From IMG/VR virus record IMGVR_UViG_3300028887_000105: 13,417 nucleotides of DNA, one strand, 5' to 3'. Positions within the stretch are counted from its first letter, which is position 1. Every line of letters starts with the position of its first letter. Shown here piece after piece: positions 4,789-12,712 of the stretch. The notes below the pieces were generated by a model, which saw only the letters and a program-made list of their open reading frames with translations, was not told the DNA's origin and did not search any database. Made by a program: the position numbers and the translations under genes. This DNA is from a virus. Taxonomy: Duplodnaviria; Heunggongvirae; Uroviricota; Caudoviricetes.

Positions 4789-5182
4789 AGAATTAAAAGA
4801 ACAAATTATAGAGGCTGAAGAAAAACTTGACAATCTCAGAAAACAACTTCGTAAAGAAGAAAACGAGAAATTCTTAAATGAAATGGGTGATTATGTCGGA
4901 AAGTATTATGAAGAATGTTCTCCTAGTCATCGAGATAAACTTGTATATGTTCAAAAGGCTAATCCTGGAAGCCAACAGTTTTTTGTAACTGACATAGAAT
5001 ATGATTCAATGTTAATTGGTAATAATTATGTTAGTATTTCTAACCATTTCGTTCATTACGCTTCTATTGTTCTTGGAAACCTAAAAGAAATTTCAAAAGA
5101 AGAGTTTACACGAAGGGCCACTCAATTACTTAAGTTTGGATTAGAAGACTTGAAAGAAACAACAGGAATAACAGTATCATGA
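4778..5182 (+). CDS. Hypothetical protein with N-terminal coiled coil (134 aa)
   Basis: Heptad-like EELKEQIIEAEEKLDNLRKQLRKEE; 11-nt overlap upstream, ATGA overlap downstream. Confidence 0.8.
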   Translation: MEIEELKEQIIEAEEKLDNLRKQLRKEENEKFLNEMGDYVGKYYEECSPSHRDKLVYVQKANPGSQQFFVTDIEYDSMLIGNNYVSISNHFVHYASIVLGNLKEISKEEFTRRATQLLKFGLEDLKETTGITVS

Positions 5183-5583
5183 GAGACATTGAATTTAGAG
5201 GAAAACGAGAATCAGACGGAGAATGGATTTACGGCTATCTGTCTGATATAAACGAAATATGCAACGTCAATGAAGTTGCTATGCCCCGTGAGGAAGTAGA
5301 TGAAGATTCCGTTGGCCAATGGACTGGACTTTATGATGCACATGATCAGAAAATTTACGAGGGTGATATTATCAGGACCACTGATGAATATCAAACCATT
5401 GGTTATGTTGTCTGGTTACGCCAGGCAATGGGTTTTTGTATTGTGTGGAAGAACTGTGATACCAGGCTTGGGCACCGTGCCCGTGGTGGAGGATACGATT
5501 GGGATAGTTCAATTGAAGTTATAGGGAATATGACTGACAATTTTGAATTAATTCCCTGGCTAAATAAAAAAGAGAAAAATTAA
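5179..5583 (+). CDS. yopX: YopX family phage protein (134 aa)
   Basis: Classic YopX motifs MRDIEFRGKR, GEWIYGYL, VGQWTGLYD...IYEGDII and IEVIGN. Confidence 0.9.
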   Translation: MRDIEFRGKRESDGEWIYGYLSDINEICNVNEVAMPREEVDEDSVGQWTGLYDAHDQKIYEGDIIRTTDEYQTIGYVVWLRQAMGFCIVWKNCDTRLGHRARGGGYDWDSSIEVIGNMTDNFELIPWLNKKEKN

Positions 5584-5591
5584 AAAACATT

Positions 5592-6332
5592 ATGAAAATT
5601 AAAAAAACAGCAATTTATGAATTTATTAACAACTCATTAGAATGTACATTAGAAGAAAATAAGAACCGTCTTGCTGACGCTATTATGGACATTATTGCCC
5701 CATTTATCAAGTCATATCTTGAAATGCAAGACGAACTTATTGAAATAAAAGCAAAATCAAAAAAGGTGGTTATTGTCGATTTTCCAGGGAAGGGAGAAGA
5801 ACTTCCTGGTGAACCAGCCCTTCAAGGTACTTTCTCGGATCCTGAAGACTGTAAAGAAGAAGAGTCAGTAGATACTCAAGATAAAGAATGTGAGAATCCA
5901 GATGAACCAGAATTACCACATTTTGAGCGTCTATATCCATATGTTGATGATGAAACATTTTGGAAGGAAGTTGACCGTATTAACTGGCGTTTTATCTGTG
6001 AAGACGAGGACGATAGGGTATACAAAGAGGTGAAGGAAGATTTGATAGAAAGATATGGTTCAAATGAAAAAGACCTAAACACAAAAATGTACCATTTTAC
6101 AAAGGCGTTGTTAGATCATATCGAAAGATATGTTGCAGCCAATTACAATAAAAAATGGATTAATTTCTGGAAAGATTGTGGTTTCGTACATGGTTTGTCC
6201 GATGATTCATTCTGGTATCTATGTACATTTATTGTAGGATGTGGAAAGAAGGAATACGATAGGGTAATGTTGGATCCGACCAGGGTTTCTGAATTTAAGG
6301 ATTACCAAGAAGGATTTGCTTACTGCTTCTAA
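5592..6332 (+). CDS. Protein with C-terminal DUF4240-like domain and acidic Pro-rich linker (246 aa)
   Basis: DDETFWKEVDR and LSDDSFWYLCTFIVGCGKKEYDRVMLDP resemble DUF4240 (FW..I; SDD.F.y....i..G...y...l.dP); linker approx. aa 64-110 is rich in E/D/P. Confidence 0.7.
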   Translation: MKIKKTAIYEFINNSLECTLEENKNRLADAIMDIIAPFIKSYLEMQDELIEIKAKSKKVVIVDFPGKGEELPGEPALQGTFSDPEDCKEEESVDTQDKECENPDEPELPHFERLYPYVDDETFWKEVDRINWRFICEDEDDRVYKEVKEDLIERYGSNEKDLNTKMYHFTKALLDHIERYVAANYNKKWINFWKDCGFVHGLSDDSFWYLCTFIVGCGKKEYDRVMLDPTRVSEFKDYQEGFAYCF

Positions 6333-8570: not shown

Positions 8571-8840
8571 ATGAATAGTTTAGTAAATGAAATTGATTAT
8601 TTTTGGGAAACAACAGATGGAACTGATTCCAAACTTGATTATGAACGAATTGTTAAATGTGCTAAACATTTCATTGAGTGGGAAAGAAACCGTCAAGCCT
8701 TATGTGGCCCTCGTGGTAGATTAGGTGGTATTCCAGAAGATATAATGGCACGCGCTGAAGAATATGCTAACAAGTTGAACCCGCCATTTGACAGGGATGA
8801 TATTTGCAACGCATATGCAGTTGGTGCAATGGAAAAATAA
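8571..8840 (+). CDS. Hypothetical phage protein (89 aa)
   Basis: ATG at 8571 (ATTATG, 2 nt after the previous stop) preferred over the track start at 8517. Confidence 0.75.
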   Translation: MNSLVNEIDYFWETTDGTDSKLDYERIVKCAKHFIEWERNRQALCGPRGRLGGIPEDIMARAEEYANKLNPPFDRDDICNAYAVGAMEK

Positions 8841-8847
8841 ATAAGTT

Positions 8848-9057
8848 ATGATAGTAAATAAACACAACTCTACATTTTATCAATTTGAAGAAGAGGATAA
8901 AGAATTTATTAACAAACAGGTTCACGATGTAAGAGATCGTTTACACGAAGTTTACGGAGAAACACTTCCTCGCGAACTTGATGAACAAATCGGATACATT
9001 GTGAGTGAGACATTCAGACTCACAATGATGTATGCAAAAAAATACAAAGTAAAATAA
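8848..9057 (+). CDS. Hypothetical protein (69 aa)
   Basis: AAGTTATG start; helical-looking sequence; no family recognised. Confidence 0.7.
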   Translation: MIVNKHNSTFYQFEEEDKEFINKQVHDVRDRLHEVYGETLPRELDEQIGYIVSETFRLTMMYAKKYKVK

Positions 9058-9081
9058 TATTAATTTAAAACGTTTTTAATT

Positions 9082-9708
9082 ATGTTCGAAAACATTCAGA
9101 GTGCCTTTGATGGCATGTTTGGTAAGGTTGGTCCTGGTATGTGCCGCCTTACAATGAACGGCAACATTGCTGTTAAGTGTAGTAAGGGTTACAAGACCTA
9201 CAACGTATCTAAGGGTACATTGACAAATGTAACCAATTTCTGTTTTAATGTAGGCGATGAAATGTTCTTCATCATTCCTACCAATAAGGTAGAGGTTGGC
9301 GACATTATCCTTGTAGGTGGAAAGCCTAAGTGTGTAACTGAGGTCAACAAGAAGGTCATTACTGTTATCGACTATGAGAACAGTGAGGTACGTCAGGTTG
9401 TTCCTGAGCGCCACGTGTTCATGGGTAGCACTTACTTCTATGGTAAGATCGTATCTATGTTCGGCAACTCCTTCAAGAAGGGTAAGGGCCTTGGTAACAT
9501 CATGAAGATGATGATGTTCTCTCAGATGATGGGTGGTAATGGTTCCGCTAACAACGGCGGTATCGGCCAGATGCTTGCTATGTCCATGTTTATGGGTGGC
9601 AACAACTCCAATCCGTTTGAAGGTATGTTTGATTTCAATTTTGACGCTGGCCTTACAGAAGATGTAGAGGAAAGCGAAGATAAGGACGAAGAAACAGAGG
9701 AGGCTTAA
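9082..9708 (+). CDS. Unknown protein with beta-rich N-terminus, Met/Gly-rich repeat and acidic tail (208 aa); gene 1 of the vWA/PurA-like module
   Basis: KVEVGDIILVGGKPKCVTEV resembles an SH3/KOW-type hairpin; 11 Met in aa 141-182; all 16 Lys codons are AAG. Confidence 0.9.
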   Translation: MFENIQSAFDGMFGKVGPGMCRLTMNGNIAVKCSKGYKTYNVSKGTLTNVTNFCFNVGDEMFFIIPTNKVEVGDIILVGGKPKCVTEVNKKVITVIDYENSEVRQVVPERHVFMGSTYFYGKIVSMFGNSFKKGKGLGNIMKMMMFSQMMGGNGSANNGGIGQMLAMSMFMGGNNSNPFEGMFDFNFDAGLTEDVEESEDKDEETEEA

Positions 9709-9710
9709 TT

Positions 9711-10601
9711 ATGGGTGGTGGTAGTTTTACAACTAACAGTTACAAATCTTATGCTAAGACTATGGGTTATTCTTACGATAGTTCTAGTGGTAGAATTAGC
9801 GGACAGGAATATAAGGCCAGGAGACTGGACGAATCCCTTGATCCTAGCAAGTTCAAGATCCGTGAGTGCGTAAACAGTGATGAGCATCCTAATACCATTC
9901 CTGTTATCCTGGCATTGGATGTAACAGGTTCTATGGGTGAGGCTTGTCGTGAGACTGCAGAGGCACTTGGTGTTATTATGACAAACCTGTATAAGAAATT
10001 CAAGGACGTTGAGTTTTGTATTATGGGTATTGGTGACCTTGCATATGACGACGCACCTATCCAGATGAGCCAGTTTGAATCTGATGTCCGTATTGCGGAA
10101 TCATTGGATAAGATCTTTGTTGAACACGGTGGTGGTGGTAACGCTTTCGAGAGTTATACCGCAGCCTGGTACATGGGTCTTAAGCATACGAAGTTGGACT
10201 GCTATGACAAGCAAGGACGTAAGGGTATCATTATTACAATGGGTGATGAGCCTATGAATCCTTATTTGCCAGTGCATAACTTGAACAATGCAATTGATGC
10301 ACATGAACAGGCTAACGTTGAAACACGTCAACTTTACGAAGAGGCTTCAAAGAAGTTTGACATTTTCCACATTGCCGTGGACAGTCCTCACGACTGTTAT
10401 CATATGTACAAAAATGAGATAGAAAAATCATTTGGTCAACTCCTTGGCACCAGACTTAAGGTTTCAACGTTGAACAATCTTTCCAAGACAATCGAGGATT
10501 GTATTTGTGAATCTGTTGGTACCTGTGGTACTGAACTCCTTGTTGATGAGGTTAAGCCTGAGGTGAATACCGTTAATGAGAATGGTGAGATCATTTGGTA
10601 A
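9711..10601 (+). CDS. Stand-alone von Willebrand factor A (vWA) domain protein (296 aa)
   Basis: Beta-strand plus MIDAS VILALD70-V-T72-G-S74, loop GGGGNAFESY, and IIITMGD179EP. Confidence 0.85.
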   Translation: MGGGSFTTNSYKSYAKTMGYSYDSSSGRISGQEYKARRLDESLDPSKFKIRECVNSDEHPNTIPVILALDVTGSMGEACRETAEALGVIMTNLYKKFKDVEFCIMGIGDLAYDDAPIQMSQFESDVRIAESLDKIFVEHGGGGNAFESYTAAWYMGLKHTKLDCYDKQGRKGIIITMGDEPMNPYLPVHNLNNAIDAHEQANVETRQLYEEASKKFDIFHIAVDSPHDCYHMYKNEIEKSFGQLLGTRLKVSTLNNLSKTIEDCICESVGTCGTELLVDEVKPEVNTVNENGEIIW

Positions 10602-10630
10602 GTTAGTTTTTATTTTTTAATTTGTTATTT

Positions 10631-11716
10631 ATGTCGAAGCAAGCGAGAATCGTAATTGGAAGCAATTATGGTGATGAAGGTAAGGGTACAGTAGTGGCCC
10701 ATTACACAAAGAACAGTGTTGGTAGTGTTGTAAACATCCTTACAAATGGTGGTGCCCAAAGAGGACATTCTATTTTAACAGAAGGCGGTAGCATTACATT
10801 TAAACATTTCGGTTCTGGAACATTCCATGGAGCGGATAATTATTATTCCCGCTTCTTCATTTTGAATCCTATGCAGTTTGTTCAGGAATACGATAAATTA
10901 CTCGTTAAACCTAAACATATCTACAGGGATAGAAGGTGTCTGTGGAGTACACCTTATGACTCTATGGCTAATATGATCATGGAGCAAAAAATGGATAGAA
11001 AGGCATCTTGTGGTATGGGTATATGGAATACCATTAAAAGATACAGGGAAATGCAGACATTCCCATTTGATGATTTCCTCAATATGTCTAATCCTGAAAT
11101 ATATTTGTGTCATGTACGCAATTATTACGATAAGATACTTGGTGAAATTCCGAGAGAATGGAAAATGATGTGGAGTTCTCATACCTTGCAAATACATTTC
11201 ATTAACGATTGTTGGTTTATGTATCATAATACCGAGTTAATGAATGATCTTGGTAGTCTTGATTATGACAACTACATATTTGAGAATGGCCAGGGCCTGT
11301 TGCTATGTGACACAGGAAGAGATACATATGACACCACACCGTCCAATACTGGTAGCCTATATGCTGCAGAACTGTTGAAGGAATTGAAAGACGTAGAGGT
11401 TACCGCGCACTATGTTACGCGTCCGTATCTTACGAGACACGGTGACGGTGGTATCAATGGAACTTATGACGTTGGTAGAGATTTCATTTCTGAGGGTATT
11501 AAGGAAGATAGAACAAACCGATATAATGGGTTCCAGGGTAAATTCAGATATGGATTTTTGGATATTAATGGTTTGAAGGATAGAATTATTGATGACAATA
11601 AGGAAATGTTTAAGGTAGAATTGGAAGTTACGCATTGTGATGAAATGGATAGAATTAATGAATTTAAAAAGTCATTCCGCAATGTAAATACTTATGACAG
11701 TGCATTAATTAAATGA
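10631..11716 (+). CDS. purA: Divergent adenylosuccinate synthetase family (PurA-like) ligase (361 aa)
   Basis: GSNYGDEGKG, NGGAQRGH, FENGQGLLL, TTPSNTG, YLTRHGDG, FRYGFLD and VTHCD correspond in order to PurA motifs. ATG at 10631 preferred over TTG at 10622. The symbol marks family only; orthology is not shown. Confidence 0.88.
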   Translation: MSKQARIVIGSNYGDEGKGTVVAHYTKNSVGSVVNILTNGGAQRGHSILTEGGSITFKHFGSGTFHGADNYYSRFFILNPMQFVQEYDKLLVKPKHIYRDRRCLWSTPYDSMANMIMEQKMDRKASCGMGIWNTIKRYREMQTFPFDDFLNMSNPEIYLCHVRNYYDKILGEIPREWKMMWSSHTLQIHFINDCWFMYHNTELMNDLGSLDYDNYIFENGQGLLLCDTGRDTYDTTPSNTGSLYAAELLKELKDVEVTAHYVTRPYLTRHGDGGINGTYDVGRDFISEGIKEDRTNRYNGFQGKFRYGFLDINGLKDRIIDDNKEMFKVELEVTHCDEMDRINEFKKSFRNVNTYDSALIK

Positions 11717-11727
11717 TTTGGATCAGT

Positions 11728-11744
11728 TTGGCACGGTATTTGTA
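11728..11744 (+). promoter_or_regulatory. Sigma54-like -24/-12 element (TTGGCACGGTATTTGTA)
   Basis: Intergenic; perfect TGGCACG -24 box with GG-N10-GT spacing (canonical is GG-N10-GC). Confidence 0.45.
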
Positions 11745-11752
11745 GAGATAAT

Positions 11753-11795
11753 TGCGAGGGTGGATTGAATGTTTTACTCTCGCAGTTTTTGTTTT
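11753..11795 (+). terminator. Intrinsic terminator after the PurA-like gene
   Basis: Stem TGCGAGGGT (11753-11761) / ACTCTCGCA (11776-11784) with one G-U pair, followed by GTTTTTGTTTT. Confidence 0.75.
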
Positions 11796-11818
11796 AAAAA
11801 ATTTGTATTATCTTTGCA
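11788..11818 (+). promoter_or_regulatory. Bacteroidota housekeeping-sigma promoter (-33 TTTG, -7 TATCTTTGCA)
   Basis: TATCTTTG at 11809-11816 followed by CA; TTTG at 11788-11791 with a 17-nt A/T-rich spacer; about 28 nt upstream of ATG 11845. Confidence 0.75.
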
Positions 11819-11844
11819 ACAGAAAATTGAAAAAACTTATAATA

Positions 11845-12219
11845 ATGGAAGAAACAAACAAATATTTTAAAGTGATTGATCCTAATAATGAAATGAAAAA
11901 AGACATCATTATTATGATTAAACCTGAAGATGTAGACAAATCTATTTTGAGATTTGAGAATGCTGGTTATAAATTGAGAGAAACAGAATGTCCTAAAGAC
12001 GTAACTTTGATTTCTTTACCAGAAGAACGTCCGAAGATGCCAAATCTTGATGCATTAGATTGTTTTGATGCATTAGATTGTGATCCATTTTTAAACACAA
12101 AACACGAACGTTATAATGGCCCGTGTTGTGGAAGATGTGCAAACAGATTCAAACTATCTGATTTTTGCACTAATCATTGTCAATCAAGTAATTGTTATCG
12201 ATTTAAATTAGAAAAATAA
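11845..12219 (+). CDS. Hypothetical protein with C-terminal Cys cluster (124 aa)
   Basis: ATG at 11845; the 31-aa extension in the track reads through the terminator and promoter. C-terminal CCGRC-x9-C-x3-C-x4-C. Confidence 0.8.
   Translation: MEETNKYFKVIDPNNEMKKDIIIMIKPEDVDKSILRFENAGYKLRETECPKDVTLISLPEERPKMPNLDALDCFDALDCDPFLNTKHERYNGPCCGRCANRFKLSDFCTNHCQSSNCYRFKLEK
12047..12081 (+). repeat. In-frame tandem duplication, 18-nt period
   Basis: TTGATGCATTAGATTGT at 12047-12063 and 12065-12081, encoding LDALDC-FDALDC. Confidence 0.9.
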
Positions 12220-12223
12220 AATT

Positions 12224-12712
12224 ATGAAAAAATTTGTTTATCTTTTTTTGATTGCCATTTGTGCAATCTCTTGCGTTGAAAATGATACGCTGACCACTAT
12301 TAATTTTCCAGAGTTTCGTGCGCATACCAGTGACTTCGTTGGCATTACCGTAAGCGATATTTGTTATTGCTACGAGCACGAACCGTATAAAGACACTAAG
12401 GTTGATCACATAGTCTTTTTTTCAAAGGACTATTACAAGGGGATTGACTCGTCATACGTATATGCGTGTATTACTTACGGGTACACGGCAATACTCCATA
12501 AGTATACCATTGCTGAGTTTGAGAAGAACAGAAATCGGATATGTTTCGAGATCAATGATACTATCAATGATAGAATAGAAAGAACAAATATGAGAATTAA
12601 ATGTGCTATGTCTCGTATTCGTCTAAACGTTGATGATAGGGACTTTTTGAAATATACGGACATTAATATGCGCACTGATAACATTTATTTAAATGCAAGT
12701 ATAAAGAAATGA
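12224..12712 (+). CDS. Predicted lipoprotein (162 aa)
   Basis: MKK n-region, hydrophobic FVYLFLIAICA, lipobox-like AISC with C17, then acidic VEND. Confidence 0.75.
   Translation: MKKFVYLFLIAICAISCVENDTLTTINFPEFRAHTSDFVGITVSDICYCYEHEPYKDTKVDHIVFFSKDYYKGIDSSYVYACITYGYTAILHKYTIAEFEKNRNRICFEINDTINDRIERTNMRIKCAMSRIRLNVDDRDFLKYTDINMRTDNIYLNASIKK

Follow-up and report, generated by a model that had tools for sequence, protein, structure and literature searches.

A conserved phage cassette pairing a divergent PurA-family enzyme with a vWA protein, a candidate nucleotide-ligation system

To our knowledge, two activities have been ascribed to enzymes with the PurA fold: synthesis of adenylosuccinate and, in PurZ phages, of the precursor of 2-aminoadenine. 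What, then, would such an enzyme do in a phage that encodes it right behind a von Willebrand factor A (vWA) protein? The question is raised by a three-gene module in the virus record IMGVR_UViG_3300028887_000105 of IMG/VR (Caudoviricetes), of which we analyzed a stretch of 13,417 nucleotides (nt), hereafter the window, a series of small co-oriented phage genes. The module comprises gene 1 (9082-9708, an open reading frame (ORF) of 208 aa), the vWA gene or gene 2 (9711-10601, 296 aa), and the PurA-like gene 3 (10631-11716, 361 aa when read from its ATG), all on the + strand. A first-pass annotation, made from the sequence alone, had proposed that the three form a dedicated nucleotide-amine ligation system. 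Our analysis shows that the vWA/PurA-like pair is the core of a conserved cassette spread over phages and bacteria, and its residue patterns place the enzyme in a putative third clade of the PurA family.

The PurA-family enzyme encoded by gene 3

The product of gene 3 matches the Pfam model PF00709 over positions 1-312 of 416 (E 1e-18, 67.8 bits for a cut-off of 27) and the PHROG family phrog_1211 (E 2.8e-35), which carries the name '2-aminooxy adenylosuccinate synthetase'. It nevertheless stays below the cut-offs of the NCBIfam equivalogs of PurA, NF002223 (45.9 bits vs 402) and TIGR00184 (37.5 vs 395.6), and below that of the PurZ model NF038379 (11.9 vs 300). When a profile of 45 members of the gene 3 family (A4) was used instead of the single protein, solved PurA was matched at E 5e-39 and solved PurZ at E 2.5e-6. 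The most likely start of the gene is the ATG at 10631, which gives MSKQARIVIGSNYGDEGKG and agrees with the starts of the homologues; a TTG at 10622 is the alternative.

The machinery that activates the nucleotide in PurA is retained. The protein has the P-loop GDEGKG with the catalytic aspartate (D15) and K18, followed by H46 and by Q221 in FEGAQG. These four residues are invariant or nearly so in the family (A2, A4) and align with Asp13, Lys16, His41, and Gln224 of PurA. The (T/S)SNT loop and the aspartate of the guanine-specificity motif (THCD here, TKLD in PurA) are also kept. Other parts of the active site have changed. At the 5'-phosphate/ribose site, N38, T129, and V273 of PurA correspond to Q43, C127, and H270, and the aspartate loop GATTGRxRR of PurA corresponds in the clade to N296-x-x-x-x-F-Q302-G-x-x-R306, read in our protein as N-G-F-Q-G-K-F-R. 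From this alignment, the L-aspartate site of PurA (Thr300, Thr301, Arg303, Arg305) is predicted not to be kept. The residues specific to the clade (Q43, C127, H270, T295, N296, Q302, and R306) are invariant or nearly so. At an overall identity of about 30%, such strict conservation of non-PurA residues speaks against decay and in favour of a defined substrate of another kind.

One might have expected an ordinary, if divergent, adenylosuccinate synthetase that boosts adenine pools or rescues them, e.g., after RADAR, with upstream genes of unrelated function. The Pfam match and the preserved catalytic Asp, His, and Gln would suit this explanation, and the homologues in the databases are indeed annotated as 'adenylosuccinate synthetase'. 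However, the equivalog score is 45.9 bits where 402 are required, and T300, T301, R303, and R305 are replaced by clade-invariant residues. There is also no purB: the largest remaining ORF of the window has at most 246 aa, so that neither purB nor a MoxR or PurZ partner gene can be in the window, in agreement with the first-pass annotation, which had seen none of them adjacent. Finally, strict adjacency to a vWA gene across phyla (see below) would be unexpected of a housekeeping enzyme. Hence, we consider an ordinary synthetase very unlikely. The first-pass annotation was right to set the ligase apart from ordinary PurA, as shown by its low equivalog score and by the invariant F-Q-G-x-x-R in place of TTGRxR. 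Its suggestion that the enzyme restores adenine pools after RADAR finds no support, since the route from inosine monophosphate (IMP) to AMP requires the aspartate site that appears to be lost.

A second possibility is that the protein is a PurZ or PurZ0 and that the phage has 2-aminoadenine (Z) DNA. The name of the best PHROG family points this way, and the protein is short, as PurZ is. The diagnostic position speaks against it: a serine replaces Asp13 in all 147 phage PurZ sequences analyzed by a recent study (PMC12884076; 2026, NAR), whereas gene 3 keeps the aspartate. Taken from that study, the mark of PurZ or PurZ0 at this position is Ser (or Gly). The scores of the PurZ model and of the family profile, both given above, agree with this, and among the scanned ORFs of the window no Pfam match of the DatZ, MazZ/DUF550, or DpoZ type was found, a statement that concerns the window only. 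We thus regard this explanation as refuted by the Asp/Ser diagnostic and give it hardly any credence. The same study, the most relevant paper to our question, sets PurZ apart from 'other PurA homologs', which it leaves unstudied and which include sequences of the gene 3 clade (PMC12884076). Taken together, the residue patterns indicate that gene 3 belongs to a third clade of the PurA family, neither PurA nor PurZ.

A conserved, self-contained cassette with a vWA/PurA-like core

To assess how far the module extends beyond the window, we scanned IMG/VR with the vWA alignment and obtained 80 loci with a vWA identity of 49-72%. Gene 1, the vWA gene, and the PurA-like gene were found in the same order and on the same strand in 79 of them, and the exception is cut by the end of its contig. 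After de-replication to 36 loci, the only shared genes are those of the trio, the next most frequent neighbour cluster being present in 5 loci. Since the flanking genes are not shared, the trio is a self-contained cassette. Among 80 loci from bacterial genomes and metagenome-assembled genomes (MAGs), 76 have the PurA-like gene directly after the vWA gene. The universal core of the cassette is therefore the vWA gene directly upstream of the PurA-like gene. The first-pass annotation had tied the fate of its proposal to the co-occurrence of the three genes in other genomes, and this co-occurrence is what we observe, for the trio in IMG/VR and for the pair in bacteria. Among the papers searched, none ties PurA-like genes to vWA proteins, J-domain kinases, or NrtR, and we came across no function published for the cassette.

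Homologues of gene 3 also occur in 219 GenBank phage records, namely 201 from phages of Mycobacterium, 10 of Rhizobium, 6 of Vibrio, 1 of Mycolicibacterium, and 1 gut phage. In representatives of each of these groups, a vWA homologue lies directly upstream of the enzyme or one small ORF away. The complete trio is present in Vibrio and Rhizobium phages, and the vWA/PurA-like pair reaches mycobacteriophages and many bacteria. What varies is the first gene. The genome and MAG loci that are closer to the window (L085-L118) retain gene 1, whereas in more distant ones it is replaced by a protein of about 340 aa that begins with a J domain (HPD) and also has a kinase-like domain. Carriers of the latter include Clostridium drakei, Acetobacter malorum, Competibacter, Acidobacteria, and Patescibacteria, and the protein is encoded directly upstream of the vWA gene in 37 loci. 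In phage I3, gp270 occupies the slot of gene 1 with a protein-kinase domain. Hence, gene 1 is the phage-type third subunit, and its slot is filled by a J-domain/kinase-like protein in bacteria and mycobacteriophages. A direct likeness between gene 1 and the kinase-like protein of phage I3 was considered as well and dismissed as chance (BLAST E 2.2).

In the window, gene 1 and gene 2 are 2 nt apart (TAA-TT-ATG), and 29 nt lie between the stop of gene 2 at 10601 and the ATG of gene 3 at 10631. In 84 of 107 related loci, the gap between gene 1 and the vWA gene ranges from -4 to +3 nt, so that the two are usually translationally coupled. The block has a GC content of 0.37-0.43 (9001-11500), against 0.29-0.37 in its flanks. 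These are the features by which the first-pass annotation had recognised it, three co-oriented genes with short gaps and GC-richer than their surroundings, and all of them are plainly visible in the sequence. We then looked for traces of transcription. The only run holding the whole sampled stretch is a bovine gut metagenome, and contigs on all three genes are present in four bovine metatranscriptome runs from four studies. Error-free contigs from these RNA libraries, which show neither strand, ends, nor level, span the junction of gene 1 and the vWA gene (9616-9766) and that of the vWA and PurA-like genes (10462-10817), and none covers the upstream flank at 8800-9007. This fits co-transcription of the three genes.

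The three components have not evolved at the same pace. Compared with their counterparts in the window, gene 1 has a median identity of 58% across the 107 related loci, the vWA protein 55%, and the enzyme 37%. The enzyme thus diverges much faster than both partners, the opposite of what one would expect for a constrained housekeeping part. A separate observation is that a few loci (L020, L025, L030, L037, L045, and L084) have inserts of 0.75-1.1 kb between the vWA and PurA-like genes, those of L025 and L037 sharing a Cys-rich N-terminus, GYNLKNGNTTSCGC. We considered whether they might encode a fourth subunit and rejected the idea: the ORFs of the inserts are unrelated and either small or mobile-looking, and the operon-splitting inserts look like mobile insertions.

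The partner proteins, their genomic context, and a proposed mechanism

Gene 2 belongs to phrog_2971 (E 2.9e-53), for which PHROG lists the function as unknown, and by sequence it has no Pfam match, vWA models included. Its AlphaFold2 (AF2) model is nonetheless confident, with a predicted local distance difference test (pLDDT) of 90.9, and has the Rossmann-like alpha/beta fold of vWA domains. Foldseek retrieved 367 PDB chains at E<=1e-3, the best solved match being integrin beta I-like domains (E 5e-7), along with collagen VI and VWF A domains (~1e-6), and VWFA clusters of AFDB were matched as well. The metal-ion-dependent adhesion site (MIDAS) is invariant in the form D70-V-T72-G73-S74 together with D179, and T160 is conserved in at least 90% of 41 sequences. 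Fold, matches, and MIDAS all uphold the earlier identification of gene 2 as a vWA protein; we are confident that it is of the MIDAS type, and metal binding is predicted.

Beyond the domain itself, the family has features of its own, such as the motifs QFExDxRI and GGGGNxxESY, of which QFExD and GGGGN are invariant, and a family-specific N-terminal extension starting with MGxGxW. It is large, with 2241 clusters at 50% identity, 842 of these at E<=1e-30. The start is well conserved: 110 of 112 distinct N-termini begin with Met-Gly (G2), conservation extends to G4 and to an aromatic side chain at position 6, and the best 150 representative clusters nearly all align from residue 1.

This start raises the possibility that the nucleotide is conjugated to a protein through its C6, either onto the N-terminal glycine of the vWA protein, after removal of the methionine, or onto a lysine in some host target that the MIDAS would hold. 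The conservation of the N-terminus would be explained, the pocket for free aspartate appears to be gone, and enzyme and vWA gene invariably come as a pair. However, residues 1-60 of the vWA protein are predicted to fold into a helix (8-18) and strands with a pLDDT of 82-97 for the block (AF2), which leaves no free tail. Further, the start is kept in a relative whose next gene is not PurA-like. The family member P0294 (L165, 258-1487; E 1e-86 to the family profile) begins with MGGGRF and is followed by a gene for a helical protein on a contig of only 2.5 kb. Complex prediction gave no verdict on this explanation. We therefore consider protein conjugation quite improbable. The idea of a nucleotide-protein conjugate had been raised in the first-pass annotation, and the form in which the vWA N-terminal glycine donates the amine loses ground, given that this N-terminus is predicted to be folded and that P0294 keeps the MGGG start. 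This protein owes its interest to a C-terminal U-box (PF04564, E 2.7e-14), the sole Pfam match among the five longest of the 150 best vWA representatives. As a 'Rosetta stone' for the partners of the vWA domain, the fusion offers no explanation of the module. The AFDB cluster representative A0A2A4U119 bears the same vWA/U-box fusion.

Gene 1 encodes, in this order, an N-terminal helix, a beta domain, a low-complexity region rich in Met, Gly, and Asn, and an acidic tail. In the AF2 model, residues 20-125 have a pLDDT of about 90 and contain an SH3/KOW/Tudor-like barrel (63-125) within the beta domain; the tail is below 60. The low-complexity region includes two short helices as well as two motifs, IMKMMMFSQMMGGN and FEGMFDF. 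Its richest 40-residue window holds 10 Met, and the protein ends in the acidic EDVEESEDKDEETEEA, which bears out the Met/Gly-rich character assigned to gene 1 in the first-pass annotation. Searches returned 4338 metagenomic homologues at E<=1e-3, whose motifs in alignment A5 are (I/M)MK(Y/M)MM(L/F)S(Q/E)MM and FDGMFDFD followed by the acidic tail. Outside metagenomes, Vibrio phage pv27 encodes a homologue immediately before its vWA gene, and Rhizobium phage RHph_Y65 encodes another before the vWA gene with one small gene intervening; these share with gene 1 the N-terminal motif, a VGD(L/I)I strand, and IMPMML(F/M)SQ. There is no match to gene 1 among Pfam, PHROG, NCBIfam, or PADLOC families. 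Its best fold matches, HEX-1, eIF5A, and EF-P N-domains, are generic (Z 5.7-6.2, Foldseek E>=0.02), and the ESM Atlas holds only unnamed viral clusters, so that the fold searches yielded no functional lead. At a threshold of E<=0.1, none of the three cassette proteins matches the defence models of PADLOC-DB v2.

Clues to the pathway come from the neighbourhood of the cassette in other genomes. An NrtR-like gene, encoding a degenerate Nudix domain and the winged helix of NrtR (NCBIfam 'ADPR responsive transcriptional repressor', E 1e-36), adjoins the module in 51 loci, i.e., in 23 of 34 MAG loci of the gene 1 type and in 28 of 46 of the J-kinase type. It can be upstream of gene 1 (L094, L098, L100, and L102) or downstream of the PurA-like gene (L088, L101, L110, L112, L115, L117, and L118). 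The NrtR-flanked trios of the gene 1 type sit on Firmicutes-associated rumen or gut contigs, and NrtR is absent from the phage loci of the Bacteroidales type. Genes related to nicotinamide adenine dinucleotide (NAD) are also found nearby. In L019, a complete phage of 424 kb, a NAPRTase-family gene (PF04095; 7129-8355) starts 67 nt downstream of the module. Its homologues near the module in L017 (7134-8420), L099, L104, and L108 were detected by phmmer only (E 4e-68 to 8e-90). In Rhizobium phage Y65, annotated phosphoribosyltransferase-like and NMNAT/Nudix genes lie 3-5 kb upstream. Neither these ties to NrtR and NAD genes nor the one to J-domain/kinase-like proteins had been noted in the first-pass annotation.

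Our preferred reading, held tentatively and with slightly less than an even chance of being right, is that GTP powers the joining of a 6-oxopurine nucleotide to a non-aspartate amine, in a complex organized by the vWA protein and with a product tied to NAD/ADP-ribose or purine homeostasis. With GTP as the phosphate donor, the enzyme would first phosphorylate an IMP-like nucleotide at its 6-oxo group and then couple the activated nucleotide to some amine, free L-aspartate excepted. The enzyme would act within the vWA complex, where the MIDAS metal probably binds an acidic ligand; an obvious choice for this ligand is the acidic tail at the C-terminus of gene 1. A role in holding clients, much as a chaperone does, is suggested by the Met/Gly-rich tail and, in other lineages, by the J domain. 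Because the cassette elsewhere adjoins NrtR-type regulators, which respond to ADP-ribose, and in some cases genes for NAMPT or NMNAT, the product would most likely bear on how the infected cell manages its NAD+/ADP-ribose or purine nucleotides, and plausibly serves counter-defence.

Several observations weigh against this ligation mechanism. Its substrate, amine partner, and product have all been read from residue patterns. The predicted complex of the vWA and PurA-like proteins (A3, A4) scored 0.00, with an ipTM* of 0.11-0.22 in a run without controls, and gives no verdict either way. The acidic tail, a candidate ligand of the MIDAS, is absent from the J-kinase proteins that take the place of gene 1. 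The RNA-library contigs may include DNA carry-over and cover gene 3 only in part. Finally, no NrtR-like ORF occurs in the window or in any of the 80 IMG/VR loci, where operator sites were not searched, and only 2 of these 80 loci have a NAPRTase-family gene next to the module. In other words, the NAD/ADP-ribose link is real across the family and weak in the lineage of the window phage.

The same contexts bear on another explanation, in which the module makes an N6-substituted or non-canonical purine nucleotide before replication, for incorporation into phage DNA or RNA. This would follow the logic of PurZ but draw on another amine, and the vWA protein and gene 1 would serve only in assembly or regulation. 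A phage paralogue of PurA that rewrites the nucleotide pool is already known in PurZ (PMC12884076), the activation chemistry is kept in gene 3 while the amine pocket appears new, and the carriers are large phages rich in nucleotide metabolism. Yet the flanks are not conserved across the 36 de-replicated loci, and no genes for the removal of dATP or for a dedicated polymerase accompany the module. The ribose/phosphate pocket is altered with no sign of deoxy-specificity, and the presence of the module in bacterial chromosomal contexts under NrtR-like regulators is hard to square with the modification of virion DNA. We thus consider a modified nucleotide of this kind improbable.

The ligation mechanism that we prefer also has a bolder version, unlikely in our judgement. 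Here the cassette would be a nucleotide-conjugating machine of a new kind in which a GTP-driven PurA-type ligase, both held and targeted by a MIDAS vWA adaptor and a chaperone-like subunit, transfers a purine nucleotide via C6 onto a protein or onto a metabolite derived from NAD or ADP-ribose. The chaperone-like subunit would be the Met/Gly-rich protein in phages and the J-domain pseudokinase in bacteria. Bacteria would induce the machine through the ADP-ribose sensor NrtR, and large phages would use it to counter immunity that depletes NAD or targets nucleotides.

Module boundaries and comparison with known systems

The 3' end of the module is marked by two elements on the + strand. Thirteen nt past the stop of gene 3 lies a sigma-54-like -24/-12 element (11729-11743, TGGCACGGTATTTGT, TGGCACG-N4-TTGT), the sole exact match to TGGCAC-N5-TTGY in the window. 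It directly precedes a hairpin of 15 pairs followed by a T-run (11750-11787, TTTGTTTT), which was identified by a scan for terminator-like sites and from the sequence, and is the best such site within 8700-12300. Given these two elements, the 3' boundary of the module is real, and the next transcription unit starts at the sigma-54-like element. The terminator by which the first-pass annotation had closed the module is thus present as a structure. Because the sigma-54-like element comes directly before it, the hairpin may be the terminator of the module, part of the leader of the next unit, or both. Elsewhere in the window, 23 ORFs were scanned, and the only products above the Pfam gathering cut-off, apart from that of the PurA-like gene, are a YopX-family protein (5179-5583; PF09643, E 2e-12) and a DUF4240-containing protein (5592-6332; PF14024, E 1.6e-6). 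The small protein encoded at 1113-1595 has no Pfam match at E<=0.01, HD phosphohydrolase included.

The third clade is very common, and its carriers are large phages of hosts of the Bacteroidota, Firmicutes, Vibrio, Rhizobium, and Mycobacterium types. Identifying its product would extend nucleotide biochemistry by a new reaction, and the association with NrtR and NAD salvage could reveal a new move in the conflict between phages and their hosts over NAD+ and nucleotides. The question is directly testable, as culturable carriers exist, among them Vibrio phage pv27/Va1, Rhizobium phage RHph_Y65, and cluster C mycobacteriophages. For the phage version of the module, the new elements are the equivalence of the gene 1 and J-kinase slots, the presence of NrtR by modules of the gene 1 type, the unconserved flanks, the difference in rate between partners and enzyme, the RNA-library evidence, and the U-box fusion.

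How does the cassette compare with known systems? Phages reconstitute NAD+ by two pathways, NARP1, formed by Adps and Namat, and NARP2, formed by NAMPT and NMNAT. The likeness to these pathways and to NrtR regulons is one of genomic association, through the NrtR-like genes of the 51 loci and the NAPRTase-family or NMNAT/Nudix genes by the module in some phages. In contrast, none of the three cassette proteins is homologous to the NARP enzymes, and we know of no NAD-related reaction of a PurA-type enzyme. Analyses from the Aravind group reportedly describe MoxR-vWA pairs and the TerY-P triad, made of a vWA protein, a Ser/Thr kinase, and a PP2C phosphatase. Like these, the bacterial and mycobacteriophage versions of our module combine a MIDAS vWA protein with a kinase-like protein. 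However, neither an AAA+ MoxR nor a phosphatase is found among the conserved neighbours of the module in the 36 de-replicated phage loci or in the flanks of the window. A PurA-family ligase is a partner in neither system, and the window phage has gene 1 in place of the kinase-like protein.

The closest relatives are the PurA-fold enzymes themselves. With PurA (EC 6.3.4.4; 1ADE and 1CG0 of E. coli, 3HID of Yersinia), gene 3 shares the fold, PF00709, the GDEGKG P-loop, the His of GH(T/S), the Gln of FEGAQG, the (T/S)SNT phosphate loop, and the guanine-specificity Asp. It differs in clade-conserved positions (GATTGRxRR to N-x-F-Q-G-x-x-R, PurA N38 to Q, T129 to C, V273 to H, and the loss of PurA K18), is about 70 residues shorter at its C-terminal end, and is always encoded after a vWA gene. 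PurZ and PurZ0 (PDB 6FM1, 7ODX, and 7VF6) are likewise phage-borne, shortened paralogues of PurA. They have Ser for Asp13 and use aspartate as the amine (PMC12884076), whereas the gene 3 clade keeps the Asp and seems to have lost the aspartate site. Gene 3 also differs from them in its obligate vWA partner, and no Z-pathway gene was found among the scanned ORFs of the window. By analogy, PurZ offers a precedent for a changed substrate in the PurA fold, and there is a real chance that the cassette, a ligase of the PurA/PurZ type and its obligate vWA protein, is something categorically new.

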